Below, piece by piece: positions 8,576 through 54,475 of a stretch of DNA of 54,475 nt. This DNA is from Candidatus Magasanikiibacteriota bacterium. Its GTDB lineage: Bacteria > Patescibacteriota > Patescibacteriia > Magasanikbacterales > UBA922. The notes below the pieces were generated by a model that had not been told where the DNA came from, did not search any database, and was given only the letters and a program-made list of their open reading frames with translations. Where the stretch lies: positions 1 to 54,475 of the forward strand of contig JABIFP010000023.1 in the NCBI GenBank assembly GCA_018650645.1. Direction: 5' to 3'. A program made the translations under genes and the position numbers. Each line of letters begins with the position of its first letter. Positions within the stretch are counted from its first letter, which is position 1.

Positions 8576-8663
8576 GTGGCGTTATGTTTTGCGATGTATG
8601 ATTCGTTTAGCGAGTTATACACTGCAACGCATACCTTGGAATATGTCCTTGGTGTGAATAGCA

Positions 8664-9270
8664 ACGGGCTGTGGGGCCCTGAATAAATCTAAATCCCACT
8701 GAGAGGCCTAACCATGGCCACCGTTAACCCCGTTCAGGCCGCCTTTGCGCTGGATCTCTGGTTCTGGGGGGAGGACTTCGTTTCGATCCCCAAGGGCGTG
8801 ACCTTCGATATGGTCGTGATGGGGAAGGCTCATCTTCCGGGCAACTGGGAGAGGGGTGATGACGAGGTCCTCGGAGAGACCTTCCGGATCGAGCTCGAGG
8901 GTGGGCTGCACCTCTGCGTGTCGGAGGGGCAGTTCTGGCTCGGCCTGAGCCACCCCGAGGTCAACGAGGGGAAGCCCTTTTTCTCCTGGCGCTACAGGCC
9001 GGGGATGCAGACCGAGCACTCCGTTGAGGTGTTGGGGCAACAGGGATCGACTCGGGAGCAGAAGGTGCGTGCTCGAGCCCAGCGCCATGCGCGGCTCATC
9101 AACGCGCTCATGCAGCTTACCGAGGCTTCTCTGCGCCTCAGCTCCTTTTTCTAGCCGCGCGCAACGCGCGGAAGTCGTCCAGCTCACCCGAGCCGGGCGC
9201 CTGCAGAAGTTCCAACTCTGTAGACCTGCGAGCGACTAGAGTACCACTCGGTATTCGTCGCTCGCACATT
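8664..9270 (+). other. high-GC cassette 1 (approximate bounds)
   Basis: Abrupt composition step. Hand counts give 57% and 63% GC on lines 8761 and 8821, versus 35% on line 4021. Confidence 0.7.
8714..9154 (+). CDS. hypothetical Trp-rich protein (146 aa) encoded in high-GC cassette 1
   Basis: About 85% G/C at third codon positions by hand tally, versus about 65% for the antisense ORF. GAGAGG lies 7 nt upstream of the ATG. No family recognised. Confidence 0.75.
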   Translation: MATVNPVQAAFALDLWFWGEDFVSIPKGVTFDMVVMGKAHLPGNWERGDDEVLGETFRIELEGGLHLCVSEGQFWLGLSHPEVNEGKPFFSWRYRPGMQTEHSVEVLGQQGSTREQKVRARAQRHARLINALMQLTEASLRLSSFF

Positions 9271-9372
9271 CTATTATGTTCTCAGTGCGCTGAGGATGCA
9301 TCGAATGAAAAAGAAAAATCGCTTTCCGGCGATATTTTTTTATGGTATCTTTTTAGTATTAATACTATATAT

Positions 9373-16522: not shown

Positions 16523-16559
16523 AAGGACGCGTTAATTTGGACGCGTCCTTTTCTTTTCT
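16523..16559 (+). terminator. intrinsic terminator of argS
   Basis: AAGGACGCG...CGCGTCCTT stem followed by TTCTTTTCT. Confidence 0.7.
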
Positions 16560-16584
16560 CAAACTTTGGCTCACGGAGGTGACC

Positions 16585-17727
16585 GTGCTAGTTGCGAATA
16601 GCGGTGTAAACCGCAACGAAGAAGCTGTCGCCCCCGAGGCGTCAGATGAGTTTCAAGAGGTTGCCCTGACGCGTGACGTCGGTGCCAACACGCTCGCGTA
16701 TGAGCACTCGATTTGTTTGCACCCCGAGCTGTGGAGTGAGCTGACCGCGATCGAACTCCACAAGTGGTTCAGCCCACGTAGCTGGCGCTACTGGGCGCTG
16801 ATGTTGCCGAGCTTCCTGCTGTTCCTGCTGAACGGTTGGTGGCGAGTGGCTGCGGCCTGGATCATCCAGACGCTGGGAGGTCGAGGCCTGTCAGTCCTCG
16901 TTGGGTCTGGCGTCAACAGGTGCTTTACCGTTGTCAGTAAGTTCGCCTACGAACTGCGCGAACTGGTGACTTCGAGTGGATCGCTTGCGATCGTTTACAA
17001 TTACGTCGTCTGGTCGCACATGGAAGGACTGCATCGGCAGCTGACGTGGGGTGAGCGCTACATGCGCTTCCACATGATGCAGCCGGATGCTGTCGCCGTA
17101 CGGCTTCGGGCCATCAAGACGTTTGAACAGGCGCTCAAGCGGCTGGAGAACCTTCTCACAGATCCTGAGCTCGGTCCGACGTTTACGGTCGAGTCGCCGC
17201 TGATATTCCCGGTCCTCGCTTGTGGTAACGCGCAAGCGGAGATCGACGCTGTCTACAGGCTGTACCAGGTCTTCCCTGAGTTCCGCGGACGGGTGAAGCT
17301 CCATCTTGTGGATGCCACTATGGCGCCACTGAGGGCAGCCGCGGATTACGCGGAAAATCGGGGCCTCGAGGGAAACTTTGAGATCTTCTGCATGAAGCTG
17401 CGGCCATACCTGCGCATGGTCAAGGAGCAGGGTTGGAAGATCTACATCCTCGACATCGTCGGGTTTCTCGACTATTACTCGGGGATCAAGATCGCGAGCC
17501 TTCTCGCTTTCATCAAGGATGTGGTGCAGAAAGGCGCCATGATCATCACCGCGCTCATCAGCAAGAGCAAGTTGGCCTTCTCAGTTCGCTGGTCGACCAA
17601 CTGGCCGCTCCTTCGCAGGTACACGAGGGAGCAGTTCACCTCGTTCTTGCTCAAGGCAGGTTTCGAGGGGAACATCACGATCATCTCCTGCATTGATGTC
17701 CACTTCGTGGCCGTCATCACCGTCTAG
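16585..17727 (+). CDS. membrane-anchored class I methyltransferase-like protein (380 aa) in high-GC cassette 2
   Basis: GTG start 5 nt after GGAGG (16575-16579); the ORF is open from 16537. TM-like segment YWALMLPSFLLFLLNGWW. C-terminal Rossmann-like strand pattern: VLACGNAQ, LHLVDAT, IYILDIVGFLDY, GAMIITAL. Confidence 0.7.
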   Translation: MLVANSGVNRNEEAVAPEASDEFQEVALTRDVGANTLAYEHSICLHPELWSELTAIELHKWFSPRSWRYWALMLPSFLLFLLNGWWRVAAAWIIQTLGGRGLSVLVGSGVNRCFTVVSKFAYELRELVTSSGSLAIVYNYVVWSHMEGLHRQLTWGERYMRFHMMQPDAVAVRLRAIKTFEQALKRLENLLTDPELGPTFTVESPLIFPVLACGNAQAEIDAVYRLYQVFPEFRGRVKLHLVDATMAPLRAAADYAENRGLEGNFEIFCMKLRPYLRMVKEQGWKIYILDIVGFLDYYSGIKIASLLAFIKDVVQKGAMIITALISKSKLAFSVRWSTNWPLLRRYTREQFTSFLLKAGFEGNITIISCIDVHFVAVITV

Positions 17728-17822
17728 TCCTTAGACAAACGCATCTGCAATGCGTTCAGGCTTCTACATATGCCTGAAAAGACAACCGTCGATACCCGCC
17801 AGGGAATCCGGAAGTCACAGCA

Positions 17823-17849
17823 CCCTCGGTCTTCGGACCGGGGTTTTTT
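17823..17849 (+). terminator. GC-rich intrinsic terminator with UUCG tetraloop (end of cassette 2)
   Basis: CCTCGGTC-TTCG-GACCGGGG followed by TTTTTT. Confidence 0.75.
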
Positions 17850-17868
17850 AATCCACCTTTGGTGGATT

Positions 17869-17906
17869 ATCCGCCGAAGCAAGGCGAAGCACTTGCGTAG
17901 GAGGAT
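17869..17906 (+). repeat. dispersed palindromic repeat, long variant (ATCCGCCGAAGC...GCGTAGGAGGAT)
   Basis: Shares both 12-nt termini with 33471-33498. Related to 21064-21089 and 24031-24056. Confidence 0.6.
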
Positions 17907-17919
17907 CACAAGTAGCGCC

Positions 17920-17948
17920 TTCAACTCTCGTACAAAATCTGCTACAAT
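17920..17948 (+). promoter_or_regulatory. promoter-like TTCAAC-17-TACAAT only 8 nt from the histidine kinase ATG (leaderless or near-leaderless mRNA)
   Basis: -10 at 17943-17948. ATG at 17957. Confidence 0.4.
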
Positions 17949-17956
17949 ACCTGCAT

Positions 17957-19642
17957 ATGCAAGAGGGTCTGTCACTCAATTATTTTTCGATCTCTGCGCT
18001 CATCAATGCCATGACCTCTCTTGGGCTTGGTATTTTTATTTTACTGACAAATCGGCAGCAGCGCGTGGCAAGATACTTAGTATATTTCTGTTTTGCGGTG
18101 GCAGCGTGGAGTATTCCATATTTTCTTTGGCAAATTTCTGATACGGCAGCCATGGCGTATTTCTGGTCACGCATGCTCATGTTTGGTGCCATCTTTACGT
18201 CTATTGCATACTTCCATCTTGTATTAGTTTTTTTGAAAAAAGAGAATGTTGAGGTGCACAGAATCATGTTTGCCATTTTTTACTTTTTTGTATTTTTCTT
18301 TACCATTGCAAATTTTACCCCATATTTTGTTGCCGGTGTGGCGCCAAAAATGGGCTTTGAATTTTGGCCGGTACCGGGGCCGCTCTACAGTTTCTTTTTG
18401 CTTGGGTTTTTTGCGCATGTAACATACGCATCCATATTACTCTTTAGAAAATATAAAAAAGCAAAAGGAATTCAGAAAAAACAAATCCTTCTTTTGCTGA
18501 TTGGAATTGGACTCGCATTTGTTGGTGGTAGTACAAATTATTTCCTTTGGTACAATATTCCGATTGCGCCATGGGGAAATGGGCTTGTGGCGGTATATGT
18601 ATTACTTACCGCATATTCAATCATGAAATATGGATTCTTGAGTTTTAAAGTTGTTGCGGCGCAAATTTTTACGGGATTACTAATCATGACAGGGTTAATG
18701 GATTTGGTAACCGCTAGAACAACAGGGCAGTTGATTGGGAGTGTGGTATCACTATTCGCCGTATCTGTTTTTGGTCTCATGCTTGTACGTTCCGTTGTTG
18801 GGGAGGTGACCAAACGAGAAGAGTTAGATCGGCTAGCAAAAAAATTAAATCGATTGAATGTAAAACTGAAGCAGCTTGATAGACAAAAGACAGAATTTTT
18901 ATCTATTGCTTCTCATCAGCTCAGAACACCGCTTTCTATTATGAAAGGGTATATCGAACTTATTGAAGACGGCGCATACGGAAAAATTACAAGAAAAACA
19001 AAACATATTTTAGATGAAATGGATGAGAGTAATGAGCGATTGGTAAAACTCGTGGATAGTTTCTTAAATATTAGCAGAATTGAGCAGGGGCGAACAAAAT
19101 ACTCGTTTGAAACGCTGAGCATGCGAGACCTTATCAGTAATGTAGTACACGAATTACATGATAGGGCGGAAGGAAAAGGGTTGAAACTTATTTGGAAGAT
19201 GCCAAAGACTAAGCTTATGACGTATATGGATGAAGAAAAAGTCCGTCATGTTATTTTCAACTTTATTGATAATGCCATTAAATATACTCCAACGGGTAAA
19301 GTGCGGGTATTTGTCACGCAAGAGCATAAAGGAATGAAATTTTCTGTAAAAGATAGTGGAATTGGATTTGATCCAATCGATCAGCCAAACTTTTTCCATA
19401 AGTTCTATAGGGGAAAAAATGTAGAAGGAGAGAATGTAAACGGTACAGGGCTTGGTATTTATGTGTGTAAGCAGTTTGCAGAGGCTCATGGAGGGAAAGT
19501 GTGGGCAAAGAGTGCTGGAAAAGGAAAGGGAAGTGATTTTGGCTTCTGGATCCCAGATCATAGAACAAGCGTCCATAAAAGAAAAGAAAAAGAGGGAAGA
19601 AGCAAAAAACAGCAGGTAGTAAACCAATACAGTACAAAATGA
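17957..19642 (+). CDS. sensor histidine kinase with multi-TM N-terminal domain
   Basis: About 8 hydrophobic helices, then H-box SHQLRTPL, N-box NAIKYTP, G1 DSGIGF and G2 GTGLGIY. Confidence 0.9.
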   Translation: MQEGLSLNYFSISALINAMTSLGLGIFILLTNRQQRVARYLVYFCFAVAAWSIPYFLWQISDTAAMAYFWSRMLMFGAIFTSIAYFHLVLVFLKKENVEVHRIMFAIFYFFVFFFTIANFTPYFVAGVAPKMGFEFWPVPGPLYSFFLLGFFAHVTYASILLFRKYKKAKGIQKKQILLLLIGIGLAFVGGSTNYFLWYNIPIAPWGNGLVAVYVLLTAYSIMKYGFLSFKVVAAQIFTGLLIMTGLMDLVTARTTGQLIGSVVSLFAVSVFGLMLVRSVVGEVTKREELDRLAKKLNRLNVKLKQLDRQKTEFLSIASHQLRTPLSIMKGYIELIEDGAYGKITRKTKHILDEMDESNERLVKLVDSFLNISRIEQGRTKYSFETLSMRDLISNVVHELHDRAEGKGLKLIWKMPKTKLMTYMDEEKVRHVIFNFIDNAIKYTPTGKVRVFVTQEHKGMKFSVKDSGIGFDPIDQPNFFHKFYRGKNVEGENVNGTGLGIYVCKQFAEAHGGKVWAKSAGKGKGSDFGFWIPDHRTSVHKRKEKEGRSKKQQVVNQYSTK

Positions 19643-19665
19643 GTATAGAAAGTGTTCAATAGGCA

Positions 19666-19694
19666 TTGAATTCCTTTGATGCCTGCGTTATAAT
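19666..19694 (+). promoter_or_regulatory. sigma70-like promoter TTGAAT-17-TATAAT upstream of the bactofilin gene
   Basis: Read directly. Confidence 0.5.
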
Positions 19695-19729
19695 CGTATC
19701 ATCAATATATTACGTAAATAGAAGAGCCT

Positions 19730-20191
19730 ATGTTTCAAAAACCCAGTGATGGCGGATACATGCCACAACCAGATGAAGTAGAGACAGTTGTCGGTCCTTC
19801 TGTAGCCGTAGAAGGGGATTTTGTTTCAGAGGGAAATATTATTGTGAAGGGGTCAGTAAGCGGTTCTGTAAAGACGTCTGCGCTTCTTTCTGTAGAAGAA
19901 GGAGCAAAGATTTTGGCGAATGTAAAAGCGCAAAGTGCAGTTATTGCAGGGCATGTAAAAGGACATCTAAAAGTAGTAGATCGATTAGAAATTTTAGAGA
20001 CAGCGCAAATTTCAGGAGATATCTCATGTGCTATCCTTTCTGTTGCTCCTGGAGCATTACTTTCTGGAAAGATTGTAATGAAAGGGCTTGCAATGGACGA
20101 AGCTGCTAAACCAAAAAAACGCACGGCAAGCAGAAGAAAAGTAAGTGAAGAAGAACAGGTGTTTGAAGAAGAAATGCCGATGGAACAGTAG
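19730..20191 (+). CDS. bactofilin-family cytoskeletal protein
   Basis: Repetitive beta-helix pattern (VEGDFVSEGNIIVKGSVSGSV...AVIAGHVKGHL...ISGDI) with a K/E-rich tail. Confidence 0.85.
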   Translation: MFQKPSDGGYMPQPDEVETVVGPSVAVEGDFVSEGNIIVKGSVSGSVKTSALLSVEEGAKILANVKAQSAVIAGHVKGHLKVVDRLEILETAQISGDISCAILSVAPGALLSGKIVMKGLAMDEAAKPKKRTASRRKVSEEEQVFEEEMPMEQ

Positions 20192-20216
20192 GGAGTACTC
20201 ATCTAATCTCCCTTCT

Positions 20217-20984
20217 ATGTACGTGTATCTTTACGACGAACTTGTAAAACACAAGAGGTACAAACAAGAAATGAGATCAATCGAGAACCGATTGACAGAT
20301 TTTGGTATTGCTGGTAGGATAGTGCGGCTTCAGCAGTTTACGAACTCCGAGGCTGTCATTTCTGAAGAGATGAAACGCGGCGCAGAAGTTGCGGTTATCG
20401 TTGGAGATGATAAAACATTTGGACGAGTTCTTTCTAGAAGCGCATCGCTTGGAGTGGTGTTTGGCTTCATTCCAATTGGGTCAGAAAAAGACAATACCAT
20501 TGCAAACGTACTTGGTATTCCTATTGGTGAAGAAGCATGTGAAGTACTGGCAAGAAGAAGAAAAGTTGGGCTTGATGTTGGTTGGGTAAATAACAGATAC
20601 TTTATTTCTCAATTACATATCAAACCACACCCAATTCGTGTACAGTACGATGAACAGTTTGCGGTAAGCGCGCGTAATGGAAAAATGGAACTCGTGGTAT
20701 GTAACTTGCAGCCGTTTGTGTGGAATGATACATCAAAACGGCAGTATGTTGTACATCCGCAAGACGGAAAGCTAGAAGCTTTTTTGCGACCAATGAAAAA
20801 GAAGACGTTGTTTAAAGAGGTGTATGAAGAACCAAGTGTGTTTCCATTTGAAGAAATGGTTATCCAATCGGATAAGCCGTTTGTGATGGAAGCTGATGGA
20901 AAAAAAAGTAAAGAAACAAAGGTGACGATTCGACTTGCTCGCAATCGTATCCACATGATTGTTGGAAAACACAGAAAATTTTGA
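20217..20984 (+). CDS. diacylglycerol/lipid kinase-like protein (degenerate)
   Basis: ATG at 20217 (MYVYLYDE...). VIVGDDKTFGRVL resembles the DAGK catalytic-domain GGDGT region. Assignment is tentative. Confidence 0.6.
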   Translation: MYVYLYDELVKHKRYKQEMRSIENRLTDFGIAGRIVRLQQFTNSEAVISEEMKRGAEVAVIVGDDKTFGRVLSRSASLGVVFGFIPIGSEKDNTIANVLGIPIGEEACEVLARRRKVGLDVGWVNNRYFISQLHIKPHPIRVQYDEQFAVSARNGKMELVVCNLQPFVWNDTSKRQYVVHPQDGKLEAFLRPMKKKTLFKEVYEEPSVFPFEEMVIQSDKPFVMEADGKKSKETKVTIRLARNRIHMIVGKHRKF

Positions 20985-21063
20985 TAGAATCATGAGCACG
21001 TGGTTCGGGAAGAGTAGATAGCTGTCTATTTTTCCCGCATCGCGGCAAACCACGCTCAGGTGG

Positions 21064-21089
21064 TCCGCCTTCGCTAAAGCTATGGCGGA
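21064..21089 (-). repeat. dispersed palindromic repeat (TCCGCC-TTCGCTAAAGCTAT-GGCGGA)
   Basis: Same family as 24031-24056 (inside rnpB), 33471-33498 and 17869-17906. Enclosed by a 12-bp inverted repeat (21025-21036 / 21102-21113). Confidence 0.6.
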
Positions 21090-21120
21090 TGAACTCTGTG
21101 TGGGAAAAATAGAACAATAC

Positions 21121-21206
21121 GCTCAGGTGGCGGAATTGGTAGACGCGCTGGCTTGAGGGGCCAGTGACTCGCAAGGGTCGTGGAGGTTCAAGTCCTCTTC
21201 TGAGCA
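21121..21206 (+). tRNA. tRNA-Leu (anticodon GAG), long variable arm, no encoded CCA
   Basis: GCTCAGG acceptor, GGCGGAATTGGTAGACGCG D-arm typical of tRNA-Leu, anticodon arm CTGGC-TTGAGGG-GCCAG, variable arm GACTC-GCAA-GGGTC, T-arm GGAGG-TTCAAGT-CCTCT. Confidence 0.9.
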
Positions 21207-21361
21207 CAAATATAAGACAGCCGATAAGGCTGTCTTATATTTGTGCGAAAAGAGAGAGGGTTTGAACCGGGGGTGGTAGGGGGCAGAGCCCCCTACATGC
21301 TGCGGAAAAGCTGGAAAAACCTGAAGGTTTTTACAAGAGGACACGAAGTGCCGAGTGAAAG

Positions 21362-21380
21362 GTCCTCTTCTGAGCACAAA
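21362..21380 (+). repeat. 19-bp perfect duplicate of the tRNA-Leu 3' end plus 4 nt of flank (GTCCTCTTCTGAGCACAAA)
   Basis: Identical to 21192-21210. Each copy is followed by its own hairpin (21204-21246; 21383-21406). Confidence 0.85.
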
Positions 21381-21628
21381 CGAAGACACTCGAAAGAGTG
21401 TCTTTTGTGTTGACAAAAACAAAAAAAACGTGTAATAAAGAAGCAGGCCCCCCAATTTTGGGGAGGAAGGACAACAATAAGGTGCATACAAAAGCTATAC
21501 CTCCGGATGAACTCCGGGGAGAGAGCGCAGTCTCTTGTCGCAGGGAAGGTGCGACAAGGCGGATTGTGCCGACGGACGCTGAAGGAAGGCCCACGCGTGT
21601 TCACACGCAGGCCCCTTTCGCGGGACGT

Positions 21629-22273
21629 ATGGTGCGTCACGGCAACTGGCAGGTTGAGGTCTTTTGGACTGAATCCTGCGCCGTGGTGGCCATGGGTGAG
21701 TACCACGTCGGGTTTCCTCGCGGAGACTGGGAGTGGTACTTTGGCGCGGTAGTGGATGATGTGTTCACGCCGCATGAGGTGATCGGGCGAGCGCGCTTCG
21801 ATCGAGGTGGGCTCAACATGAGCGCCCGCCTCTTCCATCGGAGCGTGGAGGTGGTCCCTGGCGAGTACTGGAACACCCATCGAGAAGATGCGCGGGTGTG
21901 GCGGGACTTTCTCGCCTTGACCCCGGATTGGGAGTCGCAGGCTTACGTCAACGCGCACAAGTACGCGTGCAGCCGCTCACCGAATCGGGAGATCGCTAAG
22001 GGCACAGCGCTCTACGCGGACTTCAAGTATGGCGAGCGTGCGTCGACGTGGGAAGGTTTCGACGTGCACGGCAAGTGCGTGTGGACGGGAGACTTCCAGG
22101 AGGATGCGTCGGTTCACACGCGAGTTGGGCCAGGACTGAGCTCGGAAGCGTCCGCCGGCAAGCTCGGCTGGGTGCGGATGCTCGGGATGACCCTGCCTTC
22201 GCATGGTGCGTACCAGTTGCTCCTAGAGCACTTCGTCGCCCCCATTGTGCCGATCTACAGCGCCGAGGTCTAG
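21629..22273 (+). CDS. hypothetical Trp-rich protein (214 aa from ATG 21629) in high-GC cassette 3
   Basis: Strong G/C third-position bias. The frame is open from 21398, so the start is uncertain (in-frame GTG at 21482 is also possible). No family recognised. Confidence 0.65.
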   Translation: MVRHGNWQVEVFWTESCAVVAMGEYHVGFPRGDWEWYFGAVVDDVFTPHEVIGRARFDRGGLNMSARLFHRSVEVVPGEYWNTHREDARVWRDFLALTPDWESQAYVNAHKYACSRSPNREIAKGTALYADFKYGERASTWEGFDVHGKCVWTGDFQEDASVHTRVGPGLSSEASAGKLGWVRMLGMTLPSHGAYQLLLEHFVAPIVPIYSAEV

Positions 22274-22314
22274 ACCTCCTCCTGCTTGTGCAAGCAGGGA
22301 ACAACTGATGATTC

Positions 22315-22348
22315 GCTCGACCGTCGCACTGGTCGGGCTCTTTTTTTT
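22315..22348 (+). terminator. GC-rich intrinsic terminator ending cassette 3
   Basis: GCTCGACC...GGTCGGGC stem followed by TCTTTTTTTT. Confidence 0.75.
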
Positions 22349-22356
22349 ACAAACAA

Positions 22357-22380
22357 AAACACACCCTATTGGGTGTGTTT
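22357..22380 (-). terminator. terminator hairpin for 22391..23707 (copy 1 of a duplicated hairpin)
   Basis: AAACACACCC-TATT-GGGTGTGTTT. On the minus strand it is followed by T-rich sequence. Confidence 0.65.
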
Positions 22381-22390
22381 TATATTTTAG

Positions 22391-23707
22391 TTATTTTTCT
22401 AGCGTAATGTCATTTTCAGAAAGCCGTACAGTGTATTTGGTAGGGCTAATGGGTGTGCTCTTATCTTTCATATGCTCTGGAATGCTTGCACATTTGTCTA
22501 CACCATCTCCAATAGCACAAAGCGGTTCACTATGAGATTCACCATTGGCAAACAGTTGATTATCACGTTTTTCTAGTTGGATGAGTGTCCTTCTAAAACC
22601 CTCACTAACCGGACTAGAGACAATCACATCGGTTTCATCTGTAAATGAAGCGACAAAGAAATAGCTCCCCATCCCATCAAATGCCGTAATAAGGGAATAA
22701 TATCGGTTAGCATCTCTGCAGACTGCTACAAATGACAAATTGTATACCGTTGGTTCTATCTGAAGCCATGGATACGCTAGTGGTTCGCGTTCATAAAATT
22801 CTTCAGCGCGAATTTGACTATCTATCATTTCCATTGCTCGTTCAAATGTATCATTTGAAATCATGTCATCTTTACTGACCAAGTCTAGACCTAAACATGC
22901 CTCAGCTGTCCAGGTGATATCACCGCTCGCTGAAAGTTCAGCTTCAATTTCAAATCGATATTCATTTTTTTCAATAGAAATTGGTTTTTGGAGTGATTCT
23001 GGAAGCAATGAACACGGTACAGTCATTTCATATCCAGGACATACAGGCGTTGATGGTGGTTCGCTAATTGCATAAATAGCATCATCCCGCTTTTCTAGAA
23101 TAGAGAATTGGTCAAGATACGAAGTGGCAGTTTTTTCGGAAACATGCAGACTACCAACTTTTTCTTCGACTGGGAATATTCCTTCTCGAGTATGATAGCT
23201 ATAGCCTAACGTAAAAGAGGCAATCCAATTATCGGCGCCGCGGGAATCTGGATCTGAAATATGGAGATATCTAAGATCCCCATCCTGACAGGCGGTAATA
23301 ATATGTAGGTTATTGGAATATTGCCCTATATTCCAAGGAGCATCAAGCTTTTCGGCGTATATTTTTTCAGCAGATTGTTCTCTGATTTTTTGATCAATTT
23401 GGGTGAGTGCATCTTGCGTTCTTTTTTCATTATACATTTCTTGTAGTGTCCACGCCTTCATGCCTCTGCAGTGTTCATCTGTCCATACTCTTGGTGGGTT
23501 TAATCCGTACTGATTTTCCTTTATCGTTTTTTTCGTAGACTCCAAATTTTTTTCCAGCGTCTCTATCTTTTCATGAAGTGGTTGTAGATCGGCAGTTTCC
23601 GCTTGGGGCACAGTAGCTGTTTCATCACCCTGTGAAAACACATACACAGATAAGCCTGTAGAGAGTATCGCTAAGGTAATTGCAATATATGCGAGGAGTG
23701 ATTTCAT
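22391..23707 (-). CDS. secreted hypothetical protein (438 aa)
   Basis: Signal-peptide-like N-terminus MKSLLAYIAITLAILSTGLSVYVFSQG. No family recognised. Confidence 0.8.
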   Translation of the reverse strand: MKSLLAYIAITLAILSTGLSVYVFSQGDETATVPQAETADLQPLHEKIETLEKNLESTKKTIKENQYGLNPPRVWTDEHCRGMKAWTLQEMYNEKRTQDALTQIDQKIREQSAEKIYAEKLDAPWNIGQYSNNLHIITACQDGDLRYLHISDPDSRGADNWIASFTLGYSYHTREGIFPVEEKVGSLHVSEKTATSYLDQFSILEKRDDAIYAISEPPSTPVCPGYEMTVPCSLLPESLQKPISIEKNEYRFEIEAELSASGDITWTAEACLGLDLVSKDDMISNDTFERAMEMIDSQIRAEEFYEREPLAYPWLQIEPTVYNLSFVAVCRDANRYYSLITAFDGMGSYFFVASFTDETDVIVSSPVSEGFRRTLIQLEKRDNQLFANGESHSEPLCAIGDGVDKCASIPEHMKDKSTPISPTKYTVRLSENDITLEK

Positions 23708-23744
23708 AAAGTAGTATTAAAATACAGTGTAAGTATACCACAAA

Positions 23745-23774
23745 CAAAAACACACCCAATCGGGTGTGTTTTTG
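23745..23774 (-). terminator. terminator hairpin downstream of rnpB (copy 2 of the duplicated hairpin)
   Basis: CAAAAACACACCC-AATC-GGGTGTGTTTTTG. Confidence 0.65.
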
Positions 23775-23776
23775 TT

Positions 23777-24208
23777 GCCTTATCGATCCGTATAAGCCGA
23801 ATTCTGTTCATCGCCAAAGCGATGGATGATCATTTATCTAGGGACGCTGTTGCCAGCGAACTCATGCGAGCTAACTTTTCGAAGCCTTGCGGCAACGCTG
23901 CTCTTGCTCCAGGTAGGGTTTACCACCGCTGCATGTCACCATGCAGGGAGTACAGTCGCTTTTGTCTATAGAACAAAAACATCCGTACACTTTTCACCTT
24001 TCCTCCTCTTCAACGAATTGAAGTATGTTGCCCTCCTTCGCTAAAGCTACGGCGGGCGGAGTAGTATTGTCTCTGTGGCACTGTCCCTCACGGCTTGTTG
24101 CCAAGACGCGGGTGGGCGTTACCCACTACCTTTTTTTTAGAACGAGTCTAAGGAGTTCGGACTTTCCTCTTACGCAAAGCGCAAGCGATCATCACTGGTC
24201 AATAAGGC
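23777..24208 (-). ncRNA. rnpB: RNase P RNA, bacterial type A
   Basis: The minus strand reads GAGGAAAGUCCGAACUCC (P4 5' strand), GGUAACGCC, ACAGUGCCACAGAGA, GGUAAACCCUACCUGGAGCAAG, CUAGAUAAAUGAUCAUCC and ACAGAAUUCGGCUUAU. P1 pairs GCCUUAUUGACC with GGAUCGAUAAGGC. Confidence 0.92.
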
Positions 24209-24214
24209 CCAGCA

Positions 24215-24243
24215 AGAGTACCATAAAAAACTGCGTTTGTCAA
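24215..24243 (-). promoter_or_regulatory. rnpB promoter TTGACA-17-TACTCT (minus strand)
   Basis: The -10 ends 6 nt before the predicted rnpB 5' end. Confidence 0.55.
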
Positions 24244-24246
24244 TGA

Positions 24247-24275
24247 TTGACCCGCCTGGCCGTGGAGGGTACAAT
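24247..24275 (+). promoter_or_regulatory. promoter TTGACC-17-TACAAT ending 6 nt before the sugar transferase ATG (leaderless mRNA predicted)
   Basis: The -35 box lies back-to-back with the rnpB -35 (TGTCAAtgaTTGACC). Confidence 0.5.
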
Positions 24276-24281
24276 ACCCCT

Positions 24282-25700
24282 ATGAAACGACTAGAACTCA
24301 TCTTAATGCTTTTGCAGGTCCCTGTGGATTTGCTCATGCTCCTTATTGCTGCGGGAAGTGCATACTTGCTGCGTTTTTCTGATTGGGCAGTTGGAATGAA
24401 AGCTGTGCAATTCGATTTATCTTTGACGGAATTTCTTTCAACGGCGTTTCCAATCTTTCTGGTTTGGCTCGTTATTTTTGCCTTTACTGGTTTGTATAAC
24501 GCACGCGGATCAAAGCGATTTGCTCAAGATGTATTACAAATAATTTTGGCTTGTTCTACAGGACTCGCATTTGTTGCGCTCTACATGCTCTTTTTCCAGC
24601 AACAATTCGACTCTCGTTTTTTGCTTGCTGCCACATGGGTAGGGTCACTTGTTTATGTAACAGCTGGGCGACTTATTATGCGCGGGGTTAAAGGATTGTT
24701 TTATAGAAGTGGAAGAGGGCTGAAGCGAGTAGCAATTATTGGGTCAGATTCTGTATCGATTGCGCTTAAGGACGTGTTATCAAATCGACCAGAACTTGGT
24801 TATAGCGTTGCTGCAAGTTATGCATCATTCTCAGATAATGCAATTCGACATATTCGAGCGGCGCATGTCGATGAACTTATTTTGACAAACCCCCGAAGTA
24901 ATGAAAAAGATACGGTAAAAGCGTATGAGTTTGCAAAGCTCAATCACATTGGATTTAAGTATAGTGCAGACATGTTTGCAACGCTAAGCGCGAACATGAG
25001 TGTACATCCTCTTGGAGGAATCCCTATGGTAGAAATGAACCCAACCAGACTGCAAGGATGGGGACGTATTTTAAAACGACTCTTTGATATTATTACCAGT
25101 CTGACATTACTTATTATTCTTTCTCCAATTTATCTGATTACAGCACTCGTAATAAAAAGTGAAACAGGAACCCCAATTATTTATAAAAACGAGCGCGTGG
25201 GAGTCCGCGGAAGAACATTTTTTACACTCAAATTCCGTAGCATGTTCCAAAAAGATTCCACTGGTGCACAGTTTGGAAAAAGCGGAAAGCATGCAGAAGA
25301 TGCGGAAGCAAAACTCATCAAAAAACAAAACAGCAAGCACGGACCAATTTATAAAATCAAAAATGATCCGCGGGTTACACCTTTTGGCAGATTTATTCGC
25401 AAATGGAGCATTGATGAATTGCCACAATTTGTGAACGTATTAAAAGGAGAAATGAGCATTGTTGGGCCGCGGCCGCATCAGCCAAGAGAAGTTGAAAAGT
25501 ATGATAAAGAACATTCAGTGGTATTTGCAATTAAGCCGGGAGTAACTGGTTTGGCGCAAATTTCTGGAAGAAGCGACTTGACCTTTGAAGAGGAAATGCG
25601 GTTAGATACACTATATGTAGAGCGTTGGAGTTTATGGCTTGACATTATCATCTTTATAAAAACACCTTTTATCTTGTTTAAGAAACGATCTGTTGAGTAA
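24282..25700 (+). CDS. polyprenyl-phosphate sugar phosphotransferase (WbaP-like, bacterial sugar transferase family)
   Basis: N-terminal TM helices and C-terminal KFRSM...DELPQ...GPRP catalytic-domain motifs. ATG at 24282 is preferred over the TTG at 24237, which overlaps the rnpB promoter. Confidence 0.88.
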
Positions 25701-53905: not shown

Positions 53906-53943
53906 TCTGCTTCCTTCAAAATAAGTAAAGGAAATAGGCAGTG

Positions 53944-53971
53944 CCCAGGTCAGCGAAAGTGCTGACCTGGG
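53944..53971 (-). terminator. GC-rich stem-loop downstream of the minus-strand high-GC ORF
   Basis: 11-bp perfect stem CCCAGGTCAGC/GCTGACCTGGG, 24 nt after the stop codon. Confidence 0.6.
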
Positions 53972-53994
53972 GTGCATGCAAGAGCGAGGCGTGC

Positions 53995-54475
53995 TCAGTT
54001 GCCACGGGCGTAGAAAACTTCAGTGATGTCCCCTTCGGGTGTGGCGCTGATTCGCTCCGTGAGCACACCATCTCCGTCCAGCTCAACCTCGATCCAGGCA
54101 CCATCCTCCTCGTAGTGGAGGGGAAGCTCCGTGCCGAAGTAGATCGCGCCTTCGAGGAGTGCGCCGCGACCATCGGAGGTGAGCTGGCAGTCGTTCGACA
54201 GGGGATTCAGGTGCAGGTACATCGGGTTGTCCAGCATCGGACGATCGACGTGTTCACCCAAGTTGCTGTCCCAAAATGATCCCAGACGGAACCACTCTCC
54301 CTCGATCACCCGGAGGTTCTCGCAGGTGTCGGTGGCCGGCGGGGGCACGTTGGCCTCTTCCCGCTGGCAGATGACCGGCGGGCTCGGGGTGAGGGACTTC
54401 TGAGCGAACCCATCAGGGCACGGCTCGTCGTCCTCCACGACCTCGCAGTCAACGTCCTCGATGCAGTCACGCACC
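53995..54475 (-). CDS. C-terminal part of a hypothetical Cys/Asp-rich protein in high-GC cassette 4 (5' end beyond the window)
   Basis: Strong G/C third-position bias in this frame. TGA stop at 53995-53997. No family recognised. Confidence 0.65.
   Translation of the reverse strand, partial: VRDCIEDVDCEVVEDDEPCPDGFAQKSLTPSPPVICQREEANVPPPATDTCENLRVIEGEWFRLGSFWDSNLGEHVDRPMLDNPMYLHLNPLSNDCQLTSDGRGALLEGAIYFGTELPLHYEEDGAWIEVELDGDGVLTERISATPEGDITEVFYARGN

Follow-up and report, generated by a model that had tools for sequence, protein, structure and literature searches.

A GC-rich, probably horizontally acquired single-gene unit behind a tRNA-Leu gene in a marine Patescibacteria genome

The window analyzed here is a whole contig (C17; JABIFP010000023.1) of 54,475 nucleotides (nt) from the genome of a Candidatus Magasanikiibacteriota bacterium (GCA_018650645.1, hereafter G000; 1,035,600 bases or 1.04 Mb, 32 contigs, 42.9% GC, completeness rated at 100%). 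Positions 21410-22348 of this window hold one GC-rich gene with a promoter-like site, a putative long leader, and a terminator of its own, located behind the gene for tRNA-Leu(GAG) (Table 1). This cassette is probably a horizontally acquired, self-contained, moron-like single-gene unit. The original prediction, made from the letters alone, had described a single-gene unit of foreign composition that carries a -35 box and a terminator, a description that the analysis supports. Its further proposals, that the leader is a special structured RNA and that a repeat fragment within it marks the edge of the foreign DNA, are not supported.

The cassette encodes a real protein gene, and the coding signal begins at ATG 21629. 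A codon model was trained on 70 other GC-rich open reading frames (ORFs) of G000 and identified the correct frame in 245 of the 246 windows tested. For the first 49 codons after this ATG, it returns -3.92 per codon in the frame of the gene versus -4.41 and -4.28 in the other two. GC content at third codon positions (GC3) exceeds that at second positions (GC2) from about 21610 onward, and not before, in windows of 20 codons. The product is rich in tryptophan, which makes up 4.7% of its residues.

Composition, distribution, and location all point to a foreign origin. GC content over 21441-22350 is 61%, compared with the genome average given above, and it climbs gradually across roughly 21440 to 21520. 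The protein is found in none of 60 relatives and, by profile search, in none of 400 further genomes of the class. The locus was also compared in eight relatives around a DAGK-like anchor gene, which is present in all eight; a bactofilin gene adjoins it in seven and a sugar transferase gene follows in six. ARAGORN calls tRNA-Leu(gag) after the DAGK-like gene in six of the eight, with an uncertain anticodon in G010 and no call in G015. Among the relatives, between about 0.5 and 4.8 kb separates tRNA-Leu from the RNase P RNA gene, and neither the window gene nor its 438-amino-acid neighbor occurs in any of the eight regions.

The genome G032, from another genus, carries tRNA-Leu(gag), the same tRNA-trailing element (described below), a terminator, and a TTGACA box, followed by a different GC-rich ORF (L128, G032:C2 1802-2515). 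This ORF encodes 237 amino acids at 56-65% GC between flanks of 38-44%, and its product is not related to that of the window gene (BLASTP E 0.25). The promoter-leader regions of the two genomes share nothing alignable beyond the tRNA repeat and the terminator. As unrelated GC-rich genes occupy the same spot in two genera, the spot behind tRNA-Leu is a recurrent landing place.

Features of the cassette and its surroundings are listed in Table 1.

Table 1. Coordinates of the cassette, its neighboring elements, and related copies (window positions unless a contig is named)
Feature	Position	Strand	Details
Promoter-like site	21410-21438	+	perfect -35 TTGACA (21410-21415), 17-nt spacer, weak -10 TAATAA (21433-21438)
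Putative 5′ untranslated leader	21445-21628	+	~185 nt; AT-rich first, GC-rich from ~21500
Protein gene	21629-22273	+	214 amino acids, 10 Trp; codon model, GC by codon position, four homologs
Hairpin directly 3′ of the stop codon	22281-22298	+	fold of 22275-22350
GC-rich intrinsic terminator of the cassette	22315-22348	+	9-bp stem, 6 G-C pairs, then T8
tRNA-Leu(GAG), conserved anchor of the locus	21121-21207	+	ARAGORN; Rfam RF00005, 50.6 bits
tRNA terminator hairpin A	21204-21246	+	inverted repeat I1, 19-nt arms, 100% complementary
tRNA-trailing structured element	21248-21381	+	134 nt; model R1 match, 139.5 bits; context, outside the cassette
Terminator hairpin B and T-run	21383-21409	+	diverged copy of hairpin A; stem listed on the minus strand
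AT-rich bidirectional hairpin	22356-22381	.	shared with the convergent 438-amino-acid gene; 94-97% copy at 23740-23776
Other copies of the trailing element in G000	C20:4907-5040; C5:4568-4700; C5:13779-13909; C31:1655-1786; C16:71740-71856; C13:69876-70004; C4:19888-20042
Copies of the trailing element in relatives	loci L120-L138
GC-rich stretches in the window	8641-9310; 16541-17930; 21441-22350; 53921-54475

Several features of the cassette resemble those of an independent transcription unit. Both boxes of the predicted promoter lie where they had been placed, and transcription would start from this site. At the 3′ end, the hairpin behind the stop codon was reproduced by folding, and the GC-rich terminator was borne out by a terminator scan, with the stem-loop part at 22315-22338 and the T8 run after it; the cassette thus has the factor-independent terminator of its own that is characteristic of morons. 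The composition of morons differs from that of their surroundings, as is the case here. The likeness extends to the arrangement: one gene of deviant composition, between a promoter-like site and an intrinsic terminator, inserted between conserved neighbors. Phage morons are, in the passages cited, independent transcription units spread among phage genomes (PMC3594210). The cassette differs in that it lies outside any prophage, among cellular neighbors, a tRNA gene, and the RNase P RNA gene, and has no match in PHROGs. The scanned neighbors are cellular, and tblastn gave no match in 50,697 phage records or in plasmid records. A further difference is that about 80 such units are scattered over this 1-Mb chromosome.

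The protein itself has few relatives. A full HMMER (phmmer) pass over 1.84 billion representative proteins yielded four homologs (P0002-P0005), all metagenomic proteins of 224-254 amino acids with 32-41% identity (E 6.1e-23, 4.3e-20, 6.9e-17, and 4.7e-14). An alignment of the five sequences, also used as the search profile (A1), contains 30 invariant columns, six of them Trp, and a G-x-Y-x-x-G-x-P-x-G-x-W-x-W motif. The similarity is full-length, the invariant columns include Trp, Gly, Tyr, and Pro, and an insert of about 45 residues sets the window protein apart. By sequence, the window protein is a member of this unnamed family. The original prediction recognized no family for the ORF. That holds for named families, as Pfam, NCBIfam, PHROGs, and PADLOC returned none, but the four distant homologs mean that the protein is not wholly isolated. 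A Pfam search with all five family members at E up to 10 likewise gave no match, and MORN (PF02493) and MORN_2 (PF07661) were found in none of the five.

Other searches added little. A word-indexed protein search with the single protein returned only itself, and with the A1 profile only P0004, P0005, and the window protein. No homolog-bearing contig was matched with P0002 in genomes or with A4 in metagenome and viral contigs. The best Protein Atlas score (0.88) is below lead level; a cluster bearing MORN_2 ranks tenth (score 0.87), with the family present in 13% of its members. Two PDB sequence matches of the A1 profile, CpaA (E 0.077) and ZapC (E 0.46), were taken as noise. The weak matches P0006 and P0007 were dropped: neither is MORN by Pfam, and hhalign of A1 against P0007 gave a probability of 11%.

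The AlphaFold model built from the five-sequence alignment has a mean predicted local distance difference test score (pLDDT) of 62.3 and a predicted template modeling score (pTM) of 0.59. Long antiparallel strands are predicted for residues 4-69 and 126-164 (pLDDT ~64-81); the window-specific insert is of low confidence and the C-terminal part consists of short helices. The structure prediction called for originally thus gave a middling hairpin-sheet model. Foldseek found no match in PDB at E up to 0.001, and the best Z among 48,161 chains compared with VIA-align is 6.2, below the usual noise level. The VIA-align list holds OspA-type single-layer sheets (among the top rows), TCP/G-box domains, and others. 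Its weak rows include 6jle (MORN4, Z 4.8), 1n6c (SET7/9, Z 4.7), and 7jr9_E (radial-spoke head complex, Z 5.1), presumably all MORN-bearing chains.

When set beside the MORN consensus, the family resembles MORN and MORN_2 (YwqK-type) proteins in its repeated motifs of the G-x-Y-x-x-G-x-P-x-G-x-W-x-W kind and its predicted sheet of long hairpins; it differs in having no Pfam match and in the sub-noise structural score. The product would be a soluble protein whose core forms a sheet of long β-hairpins with Gly/Tyr/Trp motifs and a MORN-like look, with short helices at the C-terminal end. The motif and the model, rather than a family assignment, would suggest a hairpin-repeat binding module. It may possibly act not as an enzyme but as an accessory protein of a binding or immunity type, a tentative proposal and the weakest step of the interpretation.

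Directly upstream of the promoter lies a 134-nt element together with a 19-nt repeat of the tRNA 3′ end, neither of which appears in the original prediction. This tRNA-trailing element is a more unusual object than the cassette. G000 contains eight copies, one immediately 3′ of each of eight different tRNA genes (Leu-gag, Leu-tag, Leu-caa, Pro, Cys, Arg, Tyr, and Glu). When built from six of these copies, a covariance model detects the element in 28 of 101 genomes searched, G000 included, at 1-10 copies each; these comprise 21 of 60 genomes of the family and 6 of 40 genomes from other families of the order. Of the 20 best loci, 17 have a called tRNA immediately upstream. The order of parts is constant: the tRNA, a terminator, an inverted copy of the tRNA T-loop and T-stem, a set of three hairpins with conserved single-stranded words between them, a direct tRNA copy spanning the T-loop to the 3′ end, and another terminator, which in some loci repeats the first exactly. 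In the window, the direct copy is an exact 19-nt repeat (D1) of the tRNA 3′ end, from 21192-21210 to 21362-21380, that closes the element.

The three hairpins of the element show strong compensatory covariation. Among 25 sequences, 95.8% of cells pair and 19 of 26 pairs are changed on both sides. Compensatory cells number 132 versus 41 in shuffles, and none of 500 shuffles reaches 132; slid controls pair at 40-64%, in an alignment that was fitted to the model and so favors the structure. G-U pairs on the strand of the tRNA suggest an RNA read in the direction of the tRNA. Rfam holds no match for the element, which is a candidate new structured RNA or a candidate tRNA-targeting mobile element.

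Upstream of this tRNA, window positions 21025-21113 form a stem with 15-nt arms around a partial copy of the tRNA-Leu 5′ end, and the word ACGCTCAGGTGG is present at 21052 and again at 21119. The partial copy is broken by a 21-nt motif that occurs at five places in the genome, one of them within the RNase P RNA gene (24034-24054).

A number of findings weigh against the cassette as a foreign, self-contained unit. The -10 box TAATAA fits TATAAT at only three of six positions and lacks the final T, and a consensus promoter scan did not list the site, so that the boxes and spacer of the predicted promoter are present but its -10 is weaker than had been stated. Among the 20 runs listed as holding the stretch, none is an RNA run. 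The searches revealed no donor, and the best homolog is only 41% identical; neither a target duplication nor a recombination site borders the cassette; and flanking repeats accompany just ~4 of 65 GC-rich ORFs tested across the genome. The predicted fold is middling (best Z 6.2), and sequence searches return no MORN family. Three more points of this kind concern the start codon. The reading frame is open from 21398, as originally noted, which leaves 77 codons upstream of ATG 21629; a GGAGG-like GGAGGAAGGA lies 10-15 nt ahead of an in-frame GTG at 21482; and 39-64 residues precede the RHGxW motif in all four homologs.

These last points would fit a longer protein that starts at GTG 21482 (263 amino acids) or GTG 21566 (235 amino acids), with much of the leader coding. 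Public gene calls of 263-291 amino acids exist alongside one of 214, and the codon model slightly favors the coding frame in 21566-21628 (-4.035 versus -4.218 and -4.118). Over 21482-21628 as a whole, however, the ORF frame is without a coding signal (-4.246 versus -4.247 and -4.182, with no frame preference), GC2 equals or exceeds GC3 in 21518-21607, and the HMMER alignments begin merely 5-7 residues ahead of the Met. Homology of the upstream frame to the N-termini of the homologs was considered and rejected: the upstream peptide falls outside the best 15 of 303 targets of a profile made from those N-termini and scores no better than shuffles. The longer protein is therefore rather unlikely, and is kept as a rival. 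The original prediction had left the start open; the codon model and periodicity favor ATG 21629, which is the best start without being fully settled. A leader of ~185 nt would result, its beginning placed from the position of the -10 box, and it would have no dedicated regulatory fold. A role of this leader as a riboswitch or attenuator, controlling the gene as a cis-regulatory RNA, is quite improbable. The 5′ untranslated region would be long, its weak Shine-Dalgarno region is partly paired in the minimum free energy (MFE) fold, and the three hairpins originally named (CCCCAA/TTGGGG, CCGGA-TGAAC-TCCGG, and CTTGTCGC-AGGGAAGGT-GCGACAAG) are all present in the sequence and the folds. The 141 nt of 21500-21640 fold stably (MFE -67.7 kcal/mol, z -3.28). 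Yet the reverse strand reaches z -2.91 and two equal-sized pieces from the ORF interior reach -3.59 and -1.69; since one of these two folds at least as well, the leader fold is not exceptional. Rfam 15 at E up to 10 over 20950-22450 shows no family over the leader (21420-21628), its lone row being SOX2OT_exon2 (21316-21378, E 1.4) upstream, so the Rfam/Infernal scan originally called for leaves the leader unexplained by any known element. There is no hairpin with a T-run inside the leader in the terminator scan and, by blastn, no copy elsewhere in G000. The special regulatory RNA is thus not upheld.

Nor does the leader reveal where the foreign DNA begins. Two words in it, AAAGCTAT (21491-21498) and GGATGAACTC (21505-21514), recur at 21076-21083 and 21087-21096 upstream of the tRNA, as originally noted, and an exact 11-mer (direct repeat family D7) is common to both regions. 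The two words co-occur at only these two places in the genome. The score of the local alignment between the regions is matched by 27 of 2,000 dinucleotide shuffles (p ~0.014). The leader overlaps only 8 nt of the 21-nt multi-copy motif, and the GGATGAACTC portion lies outside that repeat. With a similarity this marginal and a gradual rise in GC, reading the words as a fragment of a host repeat that sets a host/foreign boundary at 21517 is not supported.

The remaining alternatives concern how the gene came to its place. An old native gene, GC-rich for reasons other than transfer, is very improbable. Relatives also hold GC-rich ORFs and the promoter region is AT-rich and host-like, but the absence of the protein from the 60 relatives and 400 class genomes and from the syntenic site in the eight relatives compared, together with the unrelated gene at that site in G032, argues against it. 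It is scarcely credible that the cassette stems from an assembly chimera or from binning contamination, or that its ORF is spurious and lies in GC-rich non-coding DNA. Long ORFs in several frames do arise in GC-rich DNA, and 17 of the 64 contig ends of the genome lie within 300 nt of a GC-rich ORF. Against this stand the strong frame-specific codon signal, the Trp, Gly, and Tyr columns shared by the homologs, and contigs from four other seawater runs that bridge 21236-21490, 21382-21862, 22178-22431, and 21329-25000 with no differences. As these contigs cross both junctions, the GC-rich block is not a chimera. The stretch is recorded in marine and seawater metagenomes of 17 studies, and records of several origins place an identical protein on contigs as long as 614 kb. 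The four runs yielded no joint in which the cassette is skipped, as it would be in an empty-site variant, and a metagenome scan with the DAGK-like anchor returned relatives at 59-66% identity only. Finally, the cassette could have been carried in by an integrative element with its entry point at the tRNA-Leu 3′ end, in the manner of tRNA-linked islands. The cassette sits behind a tRNA and directly adjoins the 19-nt repeat of its 3′ end, and the locus varies among relatives, as shown by the tRNA-Leu to RNase P interval. However, both repeat copies are upstream of the cassette and enclose only the 170-nt non-coding trailing element, no third copy exists in 20900-22500, and blastn of 21208-21400 against the genome finds only the known copies. 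The same layout is seen at eight G000 tRNAs and in 27 further genomes, where a GC-rich gene is usually missing behind it; the repeat is explained as part of the trailing-element layout and therefore does not delimit the cassette. Pfam matches of the four neighboring genes scanned in 17957-25700 include no integrase, and the inserted DNA comprises just one gene, less than 1 kb long. Integration of this type is unlikely, and the cassette is best read as the acquired single-gene unit described above.

The surroundings of the cassette are those of a cellular chromosome. Genes for a histidine kinase, a bactofilin, the DAGK-like protein, and a sugar transferase lie nearby, in addition to the tRNA and the RNase P RNA, which are the only Rfam matches at gathering scores in the whole window. 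The convergent 438-amino-acid gene (22391-23707, minus strand) has no Pfam match. It is flanked on both sides (22349-22381 and 23740-23776) by a palindromic AT-rich terminator hairpin of ~33 nt in 94-97% identical copies, one of which also serves the RNase P RNA gene. As these near-identical hairpins bracket it, the gene was, they suggest, inserted together with a duplication of the hairpin.

The cassette belongs to a genome-wide pattern. G000 contains 83 GC-rich ORFs, defined by at least 70 codons, GC above 55%, and GC3 above GC2 with overlaps removed. They amount to 51.7 kb, or 5.0% of the genome, at 56-68% GC, and are arranged as 55 singles, 11 pairs, and 2 triples, with only five weak BLASTP pairs among them. 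Of 76 GC-rich ORFs, 43 have a TTGACA box in the 300 nt that precede them, an enrichment over host-like ORFs (52 of 635). When the 20 largest were searched against Pfam, five had matches above the curated cut-off, four had sub-threshold matches only, and 11 had none; the families above cut-off are MopE plus FGE-sulfatase, NhaA, ResIII helicase, INT_rpt, and PP2C. None of the four GC-rich ORFs in the window has a Pfam match above cut-off. A sharp rule, that GC-richness begins at the start codon, was rejected, as the transition falls at widely scattered positions, the median being 74 nt upstream. By blastn, no repeat in the 300 nt downstream of the 83 ORFs is shared by more than two of them; attC-type sites, such as integron gene cassettes would share at the 3′ end, are defined by structure.

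None of the 83 ORFs has a match in 488 kb sampled from the eight relatives, where GC-rich ORFs occur at 1-6 per 100 kb versus 9-12 in G000. NhaA is patchy, found in 5 of 61 genomes searched. The copy in G014 (C1:184517-185638, L139) is also a GC-rich islet, at 57% against 41-43%, in another genus of the family. It is only 35% identical to the G000 copy (C16:49609-50898), which points to separate acquisitions.

Taken together, the GC-rich units, mostly orphan single genes, may tentatively represent a previously undescribed, fast-turnover regime of gene acquisition in this marine Patescibacteria lineage. Fast turnover is suggested by their absence from the sampled relatives, the unrelated units at the same spot, and the contigs that break near units. 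The units would come from a high-GC partner or host community, and at least some would enter at repeatedly used sites that follow tRNA genes with the conserved tRNA-trailing element. No description of GC-rich micro-islands or of tRNA-trailing RNAs in these bacteria was found in the literature searches. In the passages cited, aquifer Patescibacteria carry genomic islands and individually transferred genes that make up to 13% of genome length (PMC12455944). Transferred DNA is common to both cases, with GC-rich ORFs accounting for ~5% of the genome here; the same passages contain no account of many sub-kilobase, GC-rich single-gene units with promoter and terminator, on which the supplementary tables of that study may bear.

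On its own, the cassette is an orphan accessory gene, for which a fold or a partner would add one small family to the catalog. The interest of the locus rests mostly on the genome-wide pattern of cassettes and on the neighboring tRNA-trailing element, a candidate new class of structured RNA with strong covariation that may merit its own study. With ~5% of its DNA in lineage-specific, GC-rich units, this 1-Mb symbiont-type genome, of a kind usually called streamlined, appears to take in foreign genes steadily, and the composition of these units could indicate which organisms cohabit with this bacterium.

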